Source: a virus (Duplodnaviria > Heunggongvirae > Uroviricota > Caudoviricetes). Taken from it: a stretch of DNA of 8,805 nt. The notes under the pieces were generated by a model. The model was not told the origin of the DNA. It did no database searches and saw only the letters and a list, made by a program, of their open reading frames with translations. The stretch lies in the IMG/VR virus record IMGVR_UViG_2684622618_000007; one strand, written 5' to 3'. This document shows positions 354 to 8,184 of this stretch, piece after piece. Numbering within the stretch: the first letter of the stretch is position 1; every line of letters starts with the position of its first letter. The position numbers and the translations under genes were made by a program.

Positions 354-411
354 ATGCTACATGATCACCTGGCAGAATGTCTGGAGAAAAAAGGACTGTA
401 CCGGAGAGCAG
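354..411 (+). CDS. Small hypothetical ORF, 5' part only (MLHDHLAECLEKKGLYRRA...), truncated by assembly gap
   Basis: ATG at 354 preceded by GGAGG at 343-347 with a 6-nt spacer; frame stays open into the N run at 412. Confidence 0.35.
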
Positions 412-461: not shown

Positions 462-499
462 GACTTTAGTGGTCGCTTTTTGTGTCATATATAAGTCGT

Positions 500-828
500 T
501 TAAGTAAACCTGTCTGAACAGGTTCTCTGGTCGTGTTTGTCTTTGTTGGGTACAAATTGAGAATATTTTTCATTAATTAATCTTCTTCTGCAGGCTTCAA
601 TAACCCACGCTGAAAAATTTCCTGAACCTTTCAGATCAAGAGCGATGTTAATTTGTTCAATCATCTGGTTTGGAAATCGGATGTTGCGGGTTGTTGTNNN
701 NNNNNNNNNNNNNNNNNNNNNNNNNNNNNNNNNNNNNNNNNNNNNNNGATGTTAATTTGTTCAATCATCTGGTTTGGAAATCGGATGTTGCGGGTTGTTG
801 TTCTGCGGGTTCTGTTCTTTGATGACAT
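500..828 (-). CDS. Small basic protein, YlcI/DUF3950-like, putative ribbon-helix-helix DNA-binding protein; reading frame interrupted in this assembly by a gap and duplication
   Basis: Minus strand: ATG at 828-826 gives MSSKNRTRRTTTRNIRFPNQ; 664 down to stop TAA (complement of 500-502) gives MIEQINIALDLKGSGNFSAWVIEACRRRLINEKYSQFVPNKDKHDQRTCSDRFT. The two parts join into one about 74-aa ORF if the duplicated 54 bp and the 50 N are collapsed. Matches my memory of E. coli prophage YlcI-family proteins (not verifiable here). Confidence 0.55.
644..697. repeat. 54-bp direct duplicate, copy 1 (abuts gap)
   Basis: Identical to 748-801; ends exactly at the N run. Confidence 0.9.
698..747. other. Assembly gap (50 N)
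   Basis: Run of exactly 50 N. Confidence 0.97.
748..801. repeat. 54-bp direct duplicate, copy 2 (abuts gap)
   Basis: Identical to 644-697; begins exactly after the N run, consistent with unmerged overlapping contig ends. Confidence 0.9.
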
Positions 829-1027
829 AATGTTGCCCCATATTCAGTGTTGCTGATTTGTATTATCTGAAGTTGCTTTTACGTTAATTTGATGCAGATC
901 AATTAATACGATACCTGCGTCATAATTGATTATTTGACGTGGTTTGATGGCGTAGATGCACGTTGTGACATGTAGATGATAATTATTATCATTTTGCGGG
1001 TCCTTTCCGGCGATCCGACCGGTTACG

Positions 1028-1039
1028 GGGCGGCGACCT
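1028..1039 (+). other. cosN: cosN: 12-nt cohesive-end sequence GGGCGGCGACCT (terminase nicking site)
   Basis: Exact lambda cohesive-end 12-mer, preceded by GGTTACG (lambda right-end terminus) and followed by CGCGGGTTTTCGCTATTTATGAAAATTTTCCGG (lambda left-end start), as recalled. Confidence 0.85.
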
Positions 1040-1076
1040 CGCGGGTTTTCGCTATTTATGAAAATTTTCCGGGGAA

Positions 1077-1090
1077 AATCATGTCGGTAC
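1077..1090 (+). repeat. R3-like element (AATCATGTCGGTAC)
   Basis: 11/14 match to the repeat core. Confidence 0.5.
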
Positions 1091-1135
1091 TTCTCGAACA
1101 TAACTATTTGTTTTTTCTAATATCGAATCCGTAAA

Positions 1136-1149
1136 GGTCCGACATGAAA
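1136..1149 (-). repeat. R2-like element, inverted (reverse complement TTTCATGTCGGACC)
   Basis: 14/14 match to the R1-like copy, opposite orientation. Confidence 0.55.
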
Positions 1150-1176
1150 ACGCCTGAAAAAGTCATTTTCGGGCAC

Positions 1177-1190
1177 TTTCATGTCGGACC
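1177..1190 (+). repeat. R1-like element (TTTCATGTCGGACC)
   Basis: Exact copy of the repeat core, 25 nt upstream of the Nu1 start. Confidence 0.55.
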
Positions 1191-1214: not shown

Positions 1215-1734
1215 ATGAAGGTTAATAAAAAGAAACTTGCCGAAATTTTCAACGTGGATCCGCGAACGATTGAACGCTGGCAGTCTCAGGGGCTCCCTTG
1301 CGTCTCCGGAGGTGGTAAGGGCGTTGAATCTGTATTTGATACCGCCACGGCAATTCAGTGGTATGCGCAGAGGGAAGCTGATATCGAAAATGAAAAACTC
1401 CGTAAAGAGGTTGAGGATTACAGGGCTGCCAGCGAGGCAGATCTCCAGCCTGGGACTATTGAGTACGAATGCCATCGACTTACGCGTGCGCAGGCTGACG
1501 CCCAGGAGCTGAAGAATGCCAGAGACTCCGCAGAAGTGGTGGAAACCGCATTCTGTACTTTCGTGCTGTCACGGATCGCAGGTGAAATTGCCAGTATTCT
1601 TGACGGGATCCCTCTCTCAGTACAGCGGCGTTTTCCGGAACTGGAAAACCGACATGTTGATTTCCTGAAACGGGATATTATCAAAGCCATGAACAAAGCA
1701 GCCGCGCTGGATGAACTGATACCGGGGTTGCTGA

Positions 1735-1760
<26 letters not shown>
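1215..1760 (+). CDS. nu1: Terminase small subunit (Nu1 family); divergent N-terminal winged-HTH domain, lambda-like C-terminal domain
   Basis: 181-aa ORF. C-terminal two thirds ([14 protein letters not shown]...LSEYIEQSG) match lambda Nu1 as recalled; the N-terminal 70 aa differ from lambda but retain an HTH and the GGGKG motif (nt 1308-1322). Overlaps the A start by 26 nt. Confidence 0.92.
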
Positions 1761-5441
<3,681 letters not shown>

Positions 5442-5461
<20 letters not shown>

Positions 5462-6761
5462 TCTCCCGCATATTGCCAGCATGGCTTTTAATGAGCCGCT
5501 GATGCTTGAACCCGCCTATGCGCGGGTTTTCTTTTGTGCGCTTGCAGGCCAGCTTGGGATCAGCCGCCTGACGGATGCAGTATCCGGCGACAGCCTGACT
5601 GCCGGAGAGGCACCCGCGGCGCTGGCGTTATCCGGTGATGATGACGGACCACGACAGGCCCGGAGTTATCAGGTCATGAACGGCATCGCCGTGCTGCCGG
5701 TGTCCGGTACGCTGGTCAGCCGGACGCGGGCGCTGCAGCCGTATTCGGGAATGACCGGTTACAACGGCATTATCGCCCGTCTGCAACAGGCTGCCAGCGA
5801 TCCGATGGTGGACGGCATTCTGCTCGATATGGACACACCGGGCGGGATGGTGGCGGGAGCATTTGACTGTGCTGACATCATCGCCCGTGTGCGAGACATA
5901 AAACCGGTATGGGCGCTGGCCAACGACATGAACTGCAGTGCAGGTCAGCTGCTTGCCAGCGCCGCCTCCCGGCGTCTGGTCACGCAGACCGCCCGGACAG
6001 GCTCCATCGGCGTCATGATGGCTCACAGTAATTACGGTGCTGCCCTGGAGAAACAGGGCGTGGAAATCACGCTGATTTACAGCGGCAGCCATAAGGTGGA
6101 TGGCAACCCCTACAGCCATCTACCGGGTGATGTCCGGGAAACACTGCAGTCCCGGATGGATGCAACCCGCCGGATGTTTGCGCAGAAGGTGTCGGCATAT
6201 ACCGGCCTGTCCGTGCAGGCTGTGCTGGATACCGAGGCTGCAGTGTACAGCGGTCAGGAGGCCATTGATGCCGGACTGGCTGATGAACTTGTCAACAGCA
6301 CCGATGCGATCACCGTTATGCGTGATGCACTGGATGCACGTAAATCCCGTCTCTCAGGAGGGCGAATGACCAAAGAGACTCAATCAACAACTGTTTCAGC
6401 CACTGCTTCGCAGGCTGACGTTACTGGCGTGGTGCCAGCGACGGAGGGCGAAAACGCCAGCGCGGCGCAGCCGGACGTGAACGCGCAGATCACCGCTGCG
6501 GTTGCGGCAGAAAACAGCCGCATTATGGGGATCCTCAACTGTGAGGAGGCTCACGGACGCGAAGAACAGGCCCGCGTGCTGGCAGAAACCCCCGGTATGA
6601 CCGTGGAAACGGCCCGCCGCATTCTGGCCGCAGCACCACAGAGTGCACAGGCGCGCAGTGATACTGCGCTGGATCGTCTGATGCAGGGGGCACCGGCACC
6701 GCTGGCTGCAGGTAACCCGGCATCTGATGCCGTTAACGATTTGCTGAACACACCAGTGTAA
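5442..6761 (+). CDS. C: Prohead protease/scaffold gpC (S49/ClpP-like serine protease family)
   Basis: GTG start at 5442 preceded by GGAGGAG (5431-5437); product begins (V/M)TAELRNLPHIASMAFNEPLML as in lambda gpC; 439 codons; overlaps the B 3' end by 20 nt. The ORF-track start at 5307 is a non-initiating in-frame extension. Confidence 0.9.
6156..6761 (+). CDS. nu3: Scaffolding protein Nu3, translated in frame from an internal start within C
   Basis: In-frame ATG at 6156 (MDATRRMFAQKV...) at the position corresponding to lambda Nu3, sharing the stop codon of C. Assigned by homology of arrangement, not independent sequence evidence. Confidence 0.7.
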   Translation: MDATRRMFAQKVSAYTGLSVQAVLDTEAAVYSGQEAIDAGLADELVNSTDAITVMRDALDARKSRLSGGRMTKETQSTTVSATASQADVTGVVPATEGENASAAQPDVNAQITAAVAAENSRIMGILNCEEAHGREEQARVLAETPGMTVETARRILAAAPQSAQARSDTALDRLMQGAPAPLAAGNPASDAVNDLLNTPV

Positions 6762-6770
6762 GGGATGTTT

Positions 6771-7103
6771 ATGACGAGCAAAGAAACCTTTACCCATTAC
6801 CAGCCGCTGGGCAACAGTGACCCGGCTCATACCGCAACCGCGCCCGGCGGATTGAGTGCGAAAGCGCCTGCAATGACCCCGCTGATGCTGGACACCTCCA
6901 GCCGTAAGCTGGTTGCGTGGGATGGCACCACCGACGGTGCTGCCGTTGGCATTCTTGCGGTTGCTGCTGACCAGACCAGCACCACGCTGACGTTCTACAA
7001 GTCCGGCACGTTCCGTTATGAGGATGTGCTCTGGCCGGAGGCTGCCAGCGACGAGACGAAAAAACGGACCGCGTTTGCCGGAACGGCAATCAGCATCGTT
7101 TAA
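6771..7103 (+). CDS. D: Head decoration protein gpD
   Basis: 110-aa product [27 protein letters not shown]... matching lambda gpD as recalled; AGGGA Shine-Dalgarno 6 nt upstream of ATG 6771. Confidence 0.95.
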
Positions 7104-7120
7104 CCTGACCCTTCATCACT

Positions 7121-7146
7121 AAAGGCCGCCTGTGCGGCTTTTTTTA
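7121..7146 (+). terminator. Terminator-like GC hairpin followed by T-run in the D-E intergenic region
   Basis: GCCGC (7125-7129), loop CTGT, GCGGC (7134-7138), then T8 (7139-7145). Confidence 0.4.
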
Positions 7147-7158
7147 CGGGATTTTTTT

Positions 7159-8184
7159 ATGTCGATGTACACAACCGCCCAACTGCTGGCGGCAAATGAG
7201 CAGAAATTTAAGTTTGATCCGCTGTTTCTGCGTCTCTTTTTCCGTGAGAGCTATCCCTTCACCACGGAGAAAGTCTATCTCTCACAAATTCCGGGACTGG
7301 TAAACATGGCGCTGTACGTTTCGCCGATTGTTTCTGGTGAGGTTATCCGTTCCCGTGGCGGCTCCACCTCTGAATTTACGCCGGGATATGTCAAGCCGAA
7401 GCATGAAGTGAATCCGCAGATGACCCTGCGTCGCCTGCCGGATGAAGATCCGCAGAATCTGGCGGACCCGGCTTACCGCCGCCGTCGCATCATCATGCAG
7501 AACATGCGTGACGAAGAGCTGGCCATTGCTCAGGTCGAAGAGATGCAGGCAGTTTCTGCCGTGCTCAAGGGCAAATACACCATGACCGGTGAAGCCTTCG
7601 ATCCGGTTGAGGTGGATATGGGCCGCAGTGCGGCGAACAACATCACGCAGTCCGGCGGCACGGAGTGGAGCAAGCGTGACAAGTCCACGTATGACCCGAC
7701 CGACGATATCGAAGCCTACGCGCTGAACGCCAGCGGCGTGGTGAATATCATCGTGTTTGACCCGAAAGGCTGGGCGCTGTTCCGTTCCTTCAAAGCCGTC
7801 AGGGAGAAGCTGGATACCCGTCGCGGCTCTCATTCCGAACTGGAGACAGCGGTAAAAGACCTGGGCAAAGCGGTGTCTTATAAGGGAATGTATGGCGATG
7901 TGGCCATCGTCGTGTATTCCGGACAGTACGTGGAAAACGGCGTCAAAAAGAACTTCCTGCCGGACAACACGATGGTGCTGGGGAACACTCAGGCACGCGG
8001 TCTGCGCACCTATGGCTGCATTCAGGATGCGGACGCACAGCGCGAAGGCATTAACGCCTCTGCCCGTTACCCGAAAAACTGGGTGACCACCGGCGATCCG
8101 GCGCGTGAGTTCACCATGATTCAGTCAGCACCGCTGATGCTGCTGGCTGACCCTGATGAGTTCGTGTCCGTACAACTGGCGTAA
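7159..8184 (+). CDS. E: Major capsid protein gpE (HK97-fold)
   Basis: 341-aa product MSMYTTAQLLAANEQKFKFDPLFLRLFFRESYPF... matching lambda gpE as recalled; the upstream in-frame extension from 7132 in the ORF track is not the start. Confidence 0.95.
   Translation: MSMYTTAQLLAANEQKFKFDPLFLRLFFRESYPFTTEKVYLSQIPGLVNMALYVSPIVSGEVIRSRGGSTSEFTPGYVKPKHEVNPQMTLRRLPDEDPQNLADPAYRRRRIIMQNMRDEELAIAQVEEMQAVSAVLKGKYTMTGEAFDPVEVDMGRSAANNITQSGGTEWSKRDKSTYDPTDDIEAYALNASGVVNIIVFDPKGWALFRSFKAVREKLDTRRGSHSELETAVKDLGKAVSYKGMYGDVAIVVYSGQYVENGVKKNFLPDNTMVLGNTQARGLRTYGCIQDADAQREGINASARYPKNWVTTGDPAREFTMIQSAPLMLLADPDEFVSVQLA

Follow-up and report, generated by a model that had tools for sequence, protein, structure and literature searches.

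Arc and Mnt of Salmonella phage P22 are small proteins of phage origin with a basic N-terminal arm, and in the structure of Arc bound to its operator, residues Q9, N11 and R13 face the DNA. The ribbon-helix-helix (RHH) fold of Arc is also represented by TacA, ParD, MazE9, NikR, the N-terminal domain of PutA and CopG, a set that includes antitoxins as well as metal and metabolite regulators. Here we analyze a gene of the YlcI/YnfO family, ylcI for short, in an 8,805-nucleotide stretch of DNA from a virus of the class Caudoviricetes (IMG/VR record IMGVR_UViG_2684622618_000007), hereafter the window. Like Arc and Mnt, the window protein is small, comes from a phage and has a basic N-terminal arm, and it has in common with Arc the strand motif N-x-R-aromatic-P (N11-L-R13-W-P15 in Arc, N14-I-R16-F-P18 in the window protein); unlike theirs, its gene lies outside the immunity region, and its similarity to Arc is not significant. 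TacA, ParD, MazE9, NikR, the PutA N-domain and CopG are its best structural matches but, unlike these antitoxins and metal or metabolite regulators, it has no toxin partner, ligand-binding domain or enzyme domain, and its tail is short and variable. The named relatives are YlcI (prophage DLP12) and YnfO (prophage Qin) of Escherichia coli K-12. Over the first ~50 residues, most lambdoid alleles have 88-94% identity, and the genes of these two proteins share the orientation of the window gene and its place adjoining a Nu1-type small terminase (noh) gene. Compared with the K-12 proteins and the phage lambda homolog, only the C-terminal tail differs, being INEKYSQFVPNKDKHDQRTCSDRFT in the window and other sequences there.

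On balance, we lean toward the view that the window protein is a dimeric, Arc-like RHH repressor, whose gene is a transcription unit of its own, antisense to the late operon. The N-terminal strands of two chains would combine to form a beta-ribbon, and this would insert into the major groove of the DNA, where alternate strand residues T12, N14 and R16, the counterparts of Arc Q9, N11 and R13, would read the bases, whereas the arm rich in Lys, Arg and Thr would contact the DNA backbone; dimers seated on short palindromes near a promoter would then repress transcription, including that of the gene itself. In the satellites described below, the YlcI-like protein would probably control its own promoter together with the divergent operon for an Icd-like cell-division inhibitor and a primase. 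We propose repression because of what is seen in distant members of the family, namely, the GGTA-N2-TACC sites of one subfamily, the palindromes of another that track the strand residues, and the layout of the satellites.

As assembled, the window does not contain the gene in one piece. There are two runs of 50 Ns, the second of which is bordered by an exact 54-bp repeat (644-697 = 748-801); this run and the duplicate are a scaffolding overlap artefact, two overlapping contigs having been joined with a gap, and in the uncollapsed window the open reading frame (ORF) listing splits the gene into 500..664 and 661..828, both on the minus strand. Once the gap and one copy of the duplicate are removed, a 225-nt minus-strand ORF is obtained (window 802-828 plus 500-697), with the product MSSKNRTRRTTTRNIRFPNQMIEQINIALDLKGSGNFSAWVIEACRRRLINEKYSQFVPNKDKHDQRTCSDRFT of 74 aa and pI 10.6, which is exactly the reconstruction offered by the preliminary description of this DNA. 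That description had asked whether the ORF would be intact once the gap was resolved, and it is: in the complete O157:H7 genome NZ_AP018488.1 the 225-nt gene is contiguous, with a translation identical to that of the window, and is annotated as WP_001303940.1, 'YlcI/YnfO family protein'. The 1.3 kb around the gene is 100% identical to many complete O157:H7 chromosomes, and the window pieces 462-697 and 748-1300 correspond to the overlapping positions 6712-6947 and 6894-7446 of the O157:H7 locus L001. The gap at 698-747 stands for no sequence and is followed by the 54-bp copy of 644-697, and that at 412-461 stands for 300 bp of real sequence, in which the left arm of a terminator and the greater part of a PerC-family gene are hidden.

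The gene is real, intact and under strong purifying selection. Over codons 1-49, comparison with the lambda allele yields 15 synonymous and 4 non-synonymous differences (proportions of changed sites pS 0.45 and pN 0.035, pN/pS 0.08), and two further pairwise comparisons give pN/pS of 0.05 and 0.07, with pS at ~0.45-0.49 over the pairs. Among 20 distinct alleles, the first 50 codons contain 26 synonymous codon variants, including multi-base changes that keep R46-R47-R48-L49, and 17 non-synonymous ones, which within codons 13-49 affect only positions 21, 30, 31 and 35, the other eleven affecting codons 3-12 of the N-terminal arm or codon 50 at the junction. The diversity at codon positions 1, 2 and 3 is, respectively, 0.039, 0.023 and 0.169 (25 haplotypes). 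That the ORF is non-functional and has been kept by flanking DNA conserved for cos function, or has been carried along by recombination, would be in line with the high conservation of the flanks and with a mosaic junction inside the gene at about codon 50; nevertheless, this explanation is hardly credible given the pN/pS values, the 4-7 times greater variability of third compared with first and second codon positions, and the relatives with 35-55% identity that, in unrelated contexts, keep I15, R16, F37, V41 and NFSAWV-x-x-AC. Identity among the alleles ends at about codon 50 and the tails beyond it are unrelated, from which it follows that the first ~50 residues are the functional unit, and the tail appears to be whatever sequence follows the mosaic junction. 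The conserved unit (residues 1-49) comprises the basic arm, the strand motif, a helix at 19-32, a G-S-G-N turn and the helix that starts at residue 37 and ends at 55. The full-length allele with the tail of the window is present in 671 genomes of the complete E. coli set.

The assignment to the YlcI/DUF3950 family that was made from the letters of the sequence is borne out by profile searches: the product matches Pfam DUF3950 (PF13132) with 66.6 bits against a cut-off of 25 (E 1.8e-18), NCBIfam YlcI_YnfO_N (NF041551) with 34.6 bits against 30, and PHROG 949 with E 1.7e-31. DUF3950 is matched by all 25 members of a diverse alignment in which I15, R16, F37 and V41 are invariant and F17, I25, N36, S38, A39, W40, A44 and C45 are at least 90% conserved; the family core I-R-F ... 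N-F-S-A-W-V-x-x-A-C, in proteins of ~50-110 residues, is present in the window protein. A HMMER search carried out exhaustively on 1.84 billion representative proteins returned only 103 matches at E<=0.001, many of them frameshifted reads of lambda control DNA; lambda spike-in DNA and such reads were left out of the family analysis, and the true distant members come from Enterobacterales only. Lambda DNA is found in 'genomes' of unrelated organisms (Kitasatospora, Cohnella, Pseudomonas, Flavobacterium) as whole 48.5-kb contigs or ~3.5-kb right-end pieces (loci L010-L040, L057 and L065), with frameshifted lambda versions also in the protein databases (many of the proteins numbered P01xx), and appears to be unremoved sequencing control DNA. 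Phage lambda itself encodes a 64-aa homolog at 48109-48303(-) (L002 2610-2804), 198 bp from its right end, which is left unannotated in both NC_001416 and J02459. The name 'orf-64' in the lambda literature denotes lambdap73, which lies between Q and S, and not this homolog; a tblastn match in Pasteurella phage Pmp7, on the strand opposite an annotated repressor gene, was treated as chance. No functional study of YlcI or YnfO was found in full-text literature searches, where both names occur only in gene lists, in agreement with the early characterization of the protein as uncharacterised. Databases already list the gene with its family name and position, PGAP naming this exact protein 'YlcI/YnfO family protein'.

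The window protein very likely adopts the RHH fold, as the preliminary description had proposed from the pattern of strand, helix, turn and helix. An AlphaFold2 (AF2) model was built for P0004, which is 100% identical to residues 1-68 of the window protein, from an alignment of 25 sequences, some of them family members with 32-55% identity. Its mean predicted local distance difference test (pLDDT) score is 71, with block means of 81-88 over residues 21-50, which cover the two helices (19-32 and 37-55); the tail falls below 65 after residue 50 and is predicted to be disordered. The Foldseek list of PDB structures is topped by NikR, ParD2, Arc and MazE9. The profile matches are weak, the best in PDB being the CopG-family RHH chain 9kkd (E 0.71), along with RHH_6 (one of the 25 members, E 0.092) and a HicB-like PHROG (E 0.011). 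With hhalign, T11-T-R-N-I-R-F-P18 falls on P8-Q-F-N-L-R-W-P15 of Arc, a match that is not significant (E 0.017, probability 2.7%), and the Arc register continues by eye without gaps through the turn into helix 2. The alternation in the strand fits an RHH protein, I15 and F17 being conserved hydrophobic residues and N14 and R16 polar ones. A fold search of BFVD was uninformative (E >0.3, mixed names). RHH proteins are the only class to which the model and fold searches lead, no score being significant by itself.

RHH antitoxins (TacA1, ParD2 and MazE9) are numerous among the closest structural matches, which, with the HicB-like PHROG match and a relative in Leminorella that is divergent from a SymE-type toxin gene (L047), raises the possibility of an orphan antitoxin, or an antitoxin-like neutralizer of a toxin encoded elsewhere. 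This role is very improbable: there is no co-transcribed toxin gene, the stop codon being followed by a terminator and then by the convergent gene of a PerC regulator; the C-terminal tail, which is the toxin-binding part in RHH antitoxins, is the unconserved part of the window protein; no neighbor is conserved over the contexts; and PADLOC gives no defence-system match, the only hit of the O157 protein being a methyltransferase model, which is spurious (E 0.0032), and one satellite member having none.

The evidence for repression comes from distant relatives and includes their putative operators. In subfamily C, which has the strand K-N-I-R-F-E, GGTA-N2-TACC occurs 20 times in 100 kb of ten loci, in 19 cases at -44/-45 and -10/-11 from the start codon, compared with 8 occurrences in 484 kb of other loci, two of which represent the same arrangement in an eleventh member (L071). 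Four of the ten loci contain no satellite genes within 10 kb and still have the sites, which thus travel with the RHH gene rather than with AlpA or the primase. The distal operator of subfamily C lies near the promoter, at its presumed position, and presumably resembles Arc at Pant of P22 in this respect. In subfamily B, with the strand K-x-I-R-F-P, two to four copies of a 10-16-nt GTG...CAC palindrome are located within ~130 bp upstream of the gene at a fixed start-to-start spacing, mostly 23-26 and 46-47 bp, and the core is specific to each element. Across ~40 loci, in a comparison that was enlarged by 80 metagenomic loci, this core tracks the residues at positions -4 and -2 from the invariant Arg, a correlation among loci that are not phylogenetically independent and, hence, a lead rather than a proof. 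In Arc, the corresponding positions face the DNA. Y..G goes with GTGT(T/G)TAAAC (form GTGTTTAAAC), K..N with TGTGCGCACA, K..H with GTGTGCACCCA, T..K or Q..K with GTGCGGCCACAC or GTGTACCCCCAC, and T..G with a core like GTGCACATACAC.

Some relatives differ in setting. In the Leminorella locus L047, the YlcI-like gene, which has both GGTA-N2-TACC sites and is divergent from the SymE-type gene, is followed by the gene of an HNH-domain protein (4549-4833(-), 5187-6659(-)). Members from Salmonella arizonae, Salmonella diarizonae and Citrobacter (L043, L044 and L068), with the strand T-K-N-I-R-F-S, reside in non-prophage chromosomal contexts and have one palindrome each, GTAAC-N3-GTTAC or GTTAC-N6-GTAAC, at ~20-40 nt before the ATG.

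About 20 of 36 distant genomic loci lie in satellites resembling phage-inducible chromosomal islands (PICIs) or P4, with a fixed gene order, and the rest are in varied chromosomal settings. In the satellites, genes for a primase, a small ORF and the Icd-like cell-division inhibitor occupy one strand, the YlcI-like gene is divergent from them, and AntA, AlpA and a P4-type integrase converge on it. Divergence from the Icd-like/primase operon is the classical position of a master repressor. In the Gram-positive PICIs, including the Staphylococcus aureus pathogenicity islands (SaPIs), the equivalent place belongs to Stl/Rpr (layout in PMC6092414): the satellite YlcI-like gene, too, is divergent from a replication-gene operon, with repeated operators between. 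The folds are unrelated, Stl being a large helix-turn-helix protein, and the likeness concerns the satellite relatives, not the prophage gene of the window. For the Gram-negative PICIs, the global repressor was stated to be unclear (PMC6092414). Satellites L048-L083 also contain a conserved G+C-rich hairpin, located between the operators and the start of the Icd-like gene, some 120-170 nt before the YlcI-like ATG. It is followed by a T run on the YlcI-like strand, on which it also folds better, with G-U pairs, and it could end an antisense transcript over the 5' end of the Icd-like gene or insulate the RHH promoter. A further protein, P0210 (175 aa), has a long C-terminal extension.

Apart from the shared ancestry that limits the operator correlation, several observations weigh against the repressor reading. 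The satellite palindromes could bind another protein, for example, AlpA. In the lambdoid subfamily, the sequence upstream of the gene yielded no repeated 9-mer, and no motif of at least 9 nt is common to the three upstream contexts of the same allele (lambda-type, HK97-type and L113), so that for the lambdoid members there is no support for autoregulation through a conserved operator upstream; a GGTA-NC-GTA motif in two lambdoid contexts was noticed post hoc and is not counted as evidence. A simple scan finds no consensus sigma-70 promoter upstream of ylcI on the minus strand, where GATAAT at 867-862 is only a candidate -10 element, and the Shine-Dalgarno sequence is weak. Finally, the strand region (residues 13-18) is coil in the monomer AF2 model, as expected if the strand forms only in the dimer.

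If the window protein is a repressor, its target can be approached from the conservation of the protein: the DNA-binding half is near-invariant over up to 12 copies per genome, which implies that the target is a sequence common to these phages or to the host. In the lambdoid prophages, the segment between ylcI and cos contains two candidates and no more than candidates for such a target, an inverted repeat and a 17-bp palindrome (Table 1). This non-coding spacer has a diversity of 0.03-0.09 in most 20-nt windows, compared with 0.169 at the third codon positions of ylcI, and the 20-nt window with the strongest conservation in the alignment (pi 0.025) overlaps the inverted repeat. The synonymous sites of ylcI vary more than the spacer does, and the ORF within the spacer lacks a coding signature, which indicates a constraint on the DNA itself. 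That ORF, on the same strand upstream of ylcI, was rejected as a gene for want of codon-position bias; in lambda it is a 37-aa GTG ORF (MEAIKPRQ...), and its equivalent in the window is the C-terminal part (...IYAIKPRQ...) of an 85-aa ORF at 844-1101(-) that spans cos.

The gene had been described as lying by cos on the strand opposite the terminase genes and as common at this position in E. coli lambdoid prophages, and both statements hold: of 78 lambdoid loci, 68 have cosN at a distance of 193-204 bp upstream of the ATG, and the DNA of the gene is matched in 4171 of 5426 complete E. coli genomes, at up to 12 places per genome. In the window, the order is ylcI, cosN, Nu1 and the large terminase gene; ylcI is on the minus strand and the terminase genes are on the plus strand, and they are therefore divergent, with cos in between. 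This arrangement lends itself to an alternative that we consider unlikely, namely, that the protein is an accessory packaging factor acting at or near cos, where it would label the right end, help in cosQ-dependent termination or modulate the small terminase. Such a role would suit the steady distance to cosN and the conservation of the entire spacer, as well as the location of the gene directly before either cos-Nu1-A or HNH-TerS-TerL in every lambdoid context except L113, with a neighbor that was not identified, and L163, where a fragment of an insertion sequence (IS) lies between ylcI and cos. It would also suit P0194 (L164 4714-5103), a 129-aa satellite protein in which a YlcI-like RHH domain is joined to a region like the N-terminus of the Terminase_2 small subunit (E 1.7e-6). 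However, in five loci the same allele, with its tail, the terminator and the PerC gene, has as its neighbor an HNH endonuclease gene that starts ~40 bp away and is followed by the small (Terminase_2) and large terminase subunit genes; these loci have no lambda cos within 400 bp, and their upstream DNA has no motif in common with the lambda-type context. The block of PerC gene, terminator and ylcI is likewise unchanged in prophages with a different packaging module (L125 and L113), and among the 36 distant loci, each examined with 10 kb of context, neither Nu1/A nor a cosN motif of the lambda type is present within 5 kb. Moreover, cosQ, cosN and cosB, together with terminase and integration host factor (IHF), account for the function of cos in lambda. 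The linkage to cos is thus usual in lambdoid prophages and not obligatory, and of the two roles suggested earlier as possibilities, regulation of the accessory genes and action at cos, the latter is weakened by the occurrence of the same allele without lambda cos and of distant members far from the lambda-type cosN motif.

A regulator encoded by prophages and satellites of the same hosts may also act between elements. It is quite unlikely, in our estimate, that the window protein is first of all a tool of phage-satellite conflict, that is, a trans-acting paralog of the satellite RHH regulator that, for example, keeps the Icd-like/primase operon shut, or a signal among co-resident lambdoid prophages. 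The division of the family between lambdoid phages and PICI/P4-like satellites, the up to 12 near-identical DNA-binding domains in one genome, and the YlcI/YnfO genes reported in capsid-forming PICIs (cf-PICIs) of Enterobacter (PMC13612085), together with the unclear global repressor of the Gram-negative PICIs (PMC6092414), speak for it, but the lambdoid strand motif (T..N) is unlike most satellite types, no satellite operator of a matching type was identified, and the satellite loci examined all come from other genera. The repressor reading can be extended to the whole family, in a form that we offer tentatively and regard as doubtful: RHH proteins of the YlcI family would be the repressors of a large group of Gram-negative satellites, with an Icd-like/primase operon, element-specific palindromes and a specificity set by two beta-strand residues, and the lambdoid copy would be a related trans-acting regulator with a shared target, possibly involved in phage-satellite or prophage-prophage crosstalk.

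On the other side of ylcI, the convergent PerC-family gene encodes a 104-aa product (Pfam PerC, 5.4e-44). The hairpin between the two genes, ~20 nt past the ylcI stop, is a perfect 10-nt inverted repeat (L001 6705-6714/6722-6731) flanked by A and T runs; the minus-strand RNA has a predicted folding energy of -12.2 kcal/mol (z = -2.7) and continues into a U run, such that the hairpin can, as judged from the sequence, terminate both the ylcI and the PerC transcripts. The ylcI gene thus has a monocistronic layout and is antisense to the late operon, in the accessory region between the lysis and packaging genes. A self-contained antisense unit fits expression in the lysogen, the evidence of transcription being an RNA-seq listing for K-12 in which ybcW and ylcI are a convergent overlapping transcript pair (PMC12288877). 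The coordinates of all these features are collected in Table 1.

Table 1. Features of the window around the ylcI-family gene, in window coordinates
Feature	Position	Strand	Remarks
PerC-family (Pch-type) gene, 5' end	354..411	+	convergent with ylcI; ~257 nt more under the first N run; L001 6354-6668, WP_001302717.1
Putative bidirectional terminator hairpin of ylcI and the PerC gene, AAAAAGCGAC-N7-GTCGCTTTTT	462..481 (visible part)		right arm 472-481; left arm under the gap at 412-461
ylcI-family coding sequence, 3' 198 nt (codons 10-74 and TAA stop at 500-502)	500..697	-	from the collapsed ORF; = L001 6750-6974(-), WP_001303940.1
Assembly artefact: 50-N gap (698-747) and second copy (748-801) of the 54 bp at 644-697	698..801		not biological sequence
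ylcI-family coding sequence, first 9 codons (ATG at 828-826)	802..828	-	from the collapsed ORF
Conserved non-coding spacer from ylcI to cosN, presumed promoter/regulatory region of ylcI	829..1027		cosQ-like GGGTCCTTTCCGG at 998-1010
Inverted repeat ATCAATTAATACG-N7-CGTCATAATTGAT, 13-nt arms 898-910/918-930	898..930		candidate operator, 70-102 bp upstream of the ATG
17-bp palindrome ATGATAAT-T-ATTATCAT	976..992		just left of the cosQ-like sequence
cosN cohesive-end sequence GGGCGGCGACCT, = lambda left end	1028..1039	+	alignment to the lambda right end stops exactly here
Nu1 (small terminase) gene	1215..1760	+	
Large terminase gene	1735..3660	+	

Beyond cosN, the segment before Nu1 (window 1066-1190) contains three CATGTCGG repeats, at 1080-1087, 1139-1146 (reverse) and 1180-1187, the last two within a 25-nt inverted repeat, and the N-terminus of Nu1 differs from that of lambda; we take these repeats to resemble the R sites of phage 21-type cosB rather than those of lambda. 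An Rfam scan of the region from the PerC gene through ylcI to cos gave only sub-threshold hairpin matches, at the cosB repeats. Farther away in the O157 prophage, IS1203, an IS3-family element, is present at L001 3240-4453, between the lysozyme and antirepressor-like genes.

What this analysis adds to the database record is the support for the RHH fold at the level of structure, the evidence of purifying selection, the recognition of the unannotated lambda copy, the loosening of the link to cos, and the operator sets in the satellite relatives. Lambda itself and about three quarters of the complete E. coli genomes carry this gene, for which no functional study was found, and the Arc-like fold, along with the operators in relatives, makes the domain of unknown function (DUF) of this family directly testable. 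In enterohemorrhagic E. coli (EHEC), the gene lies tail-to-tail with that of a PerC/Pch-type virulence regulator, and any transcriptional interplay between the two could affect the regulation of the locus of enterocyte effacement (LEE). If the satellite relatives are repressors, they would bear on the silencing of the Gram-negative PICIs that the 2018 description of these elements left unresolved.

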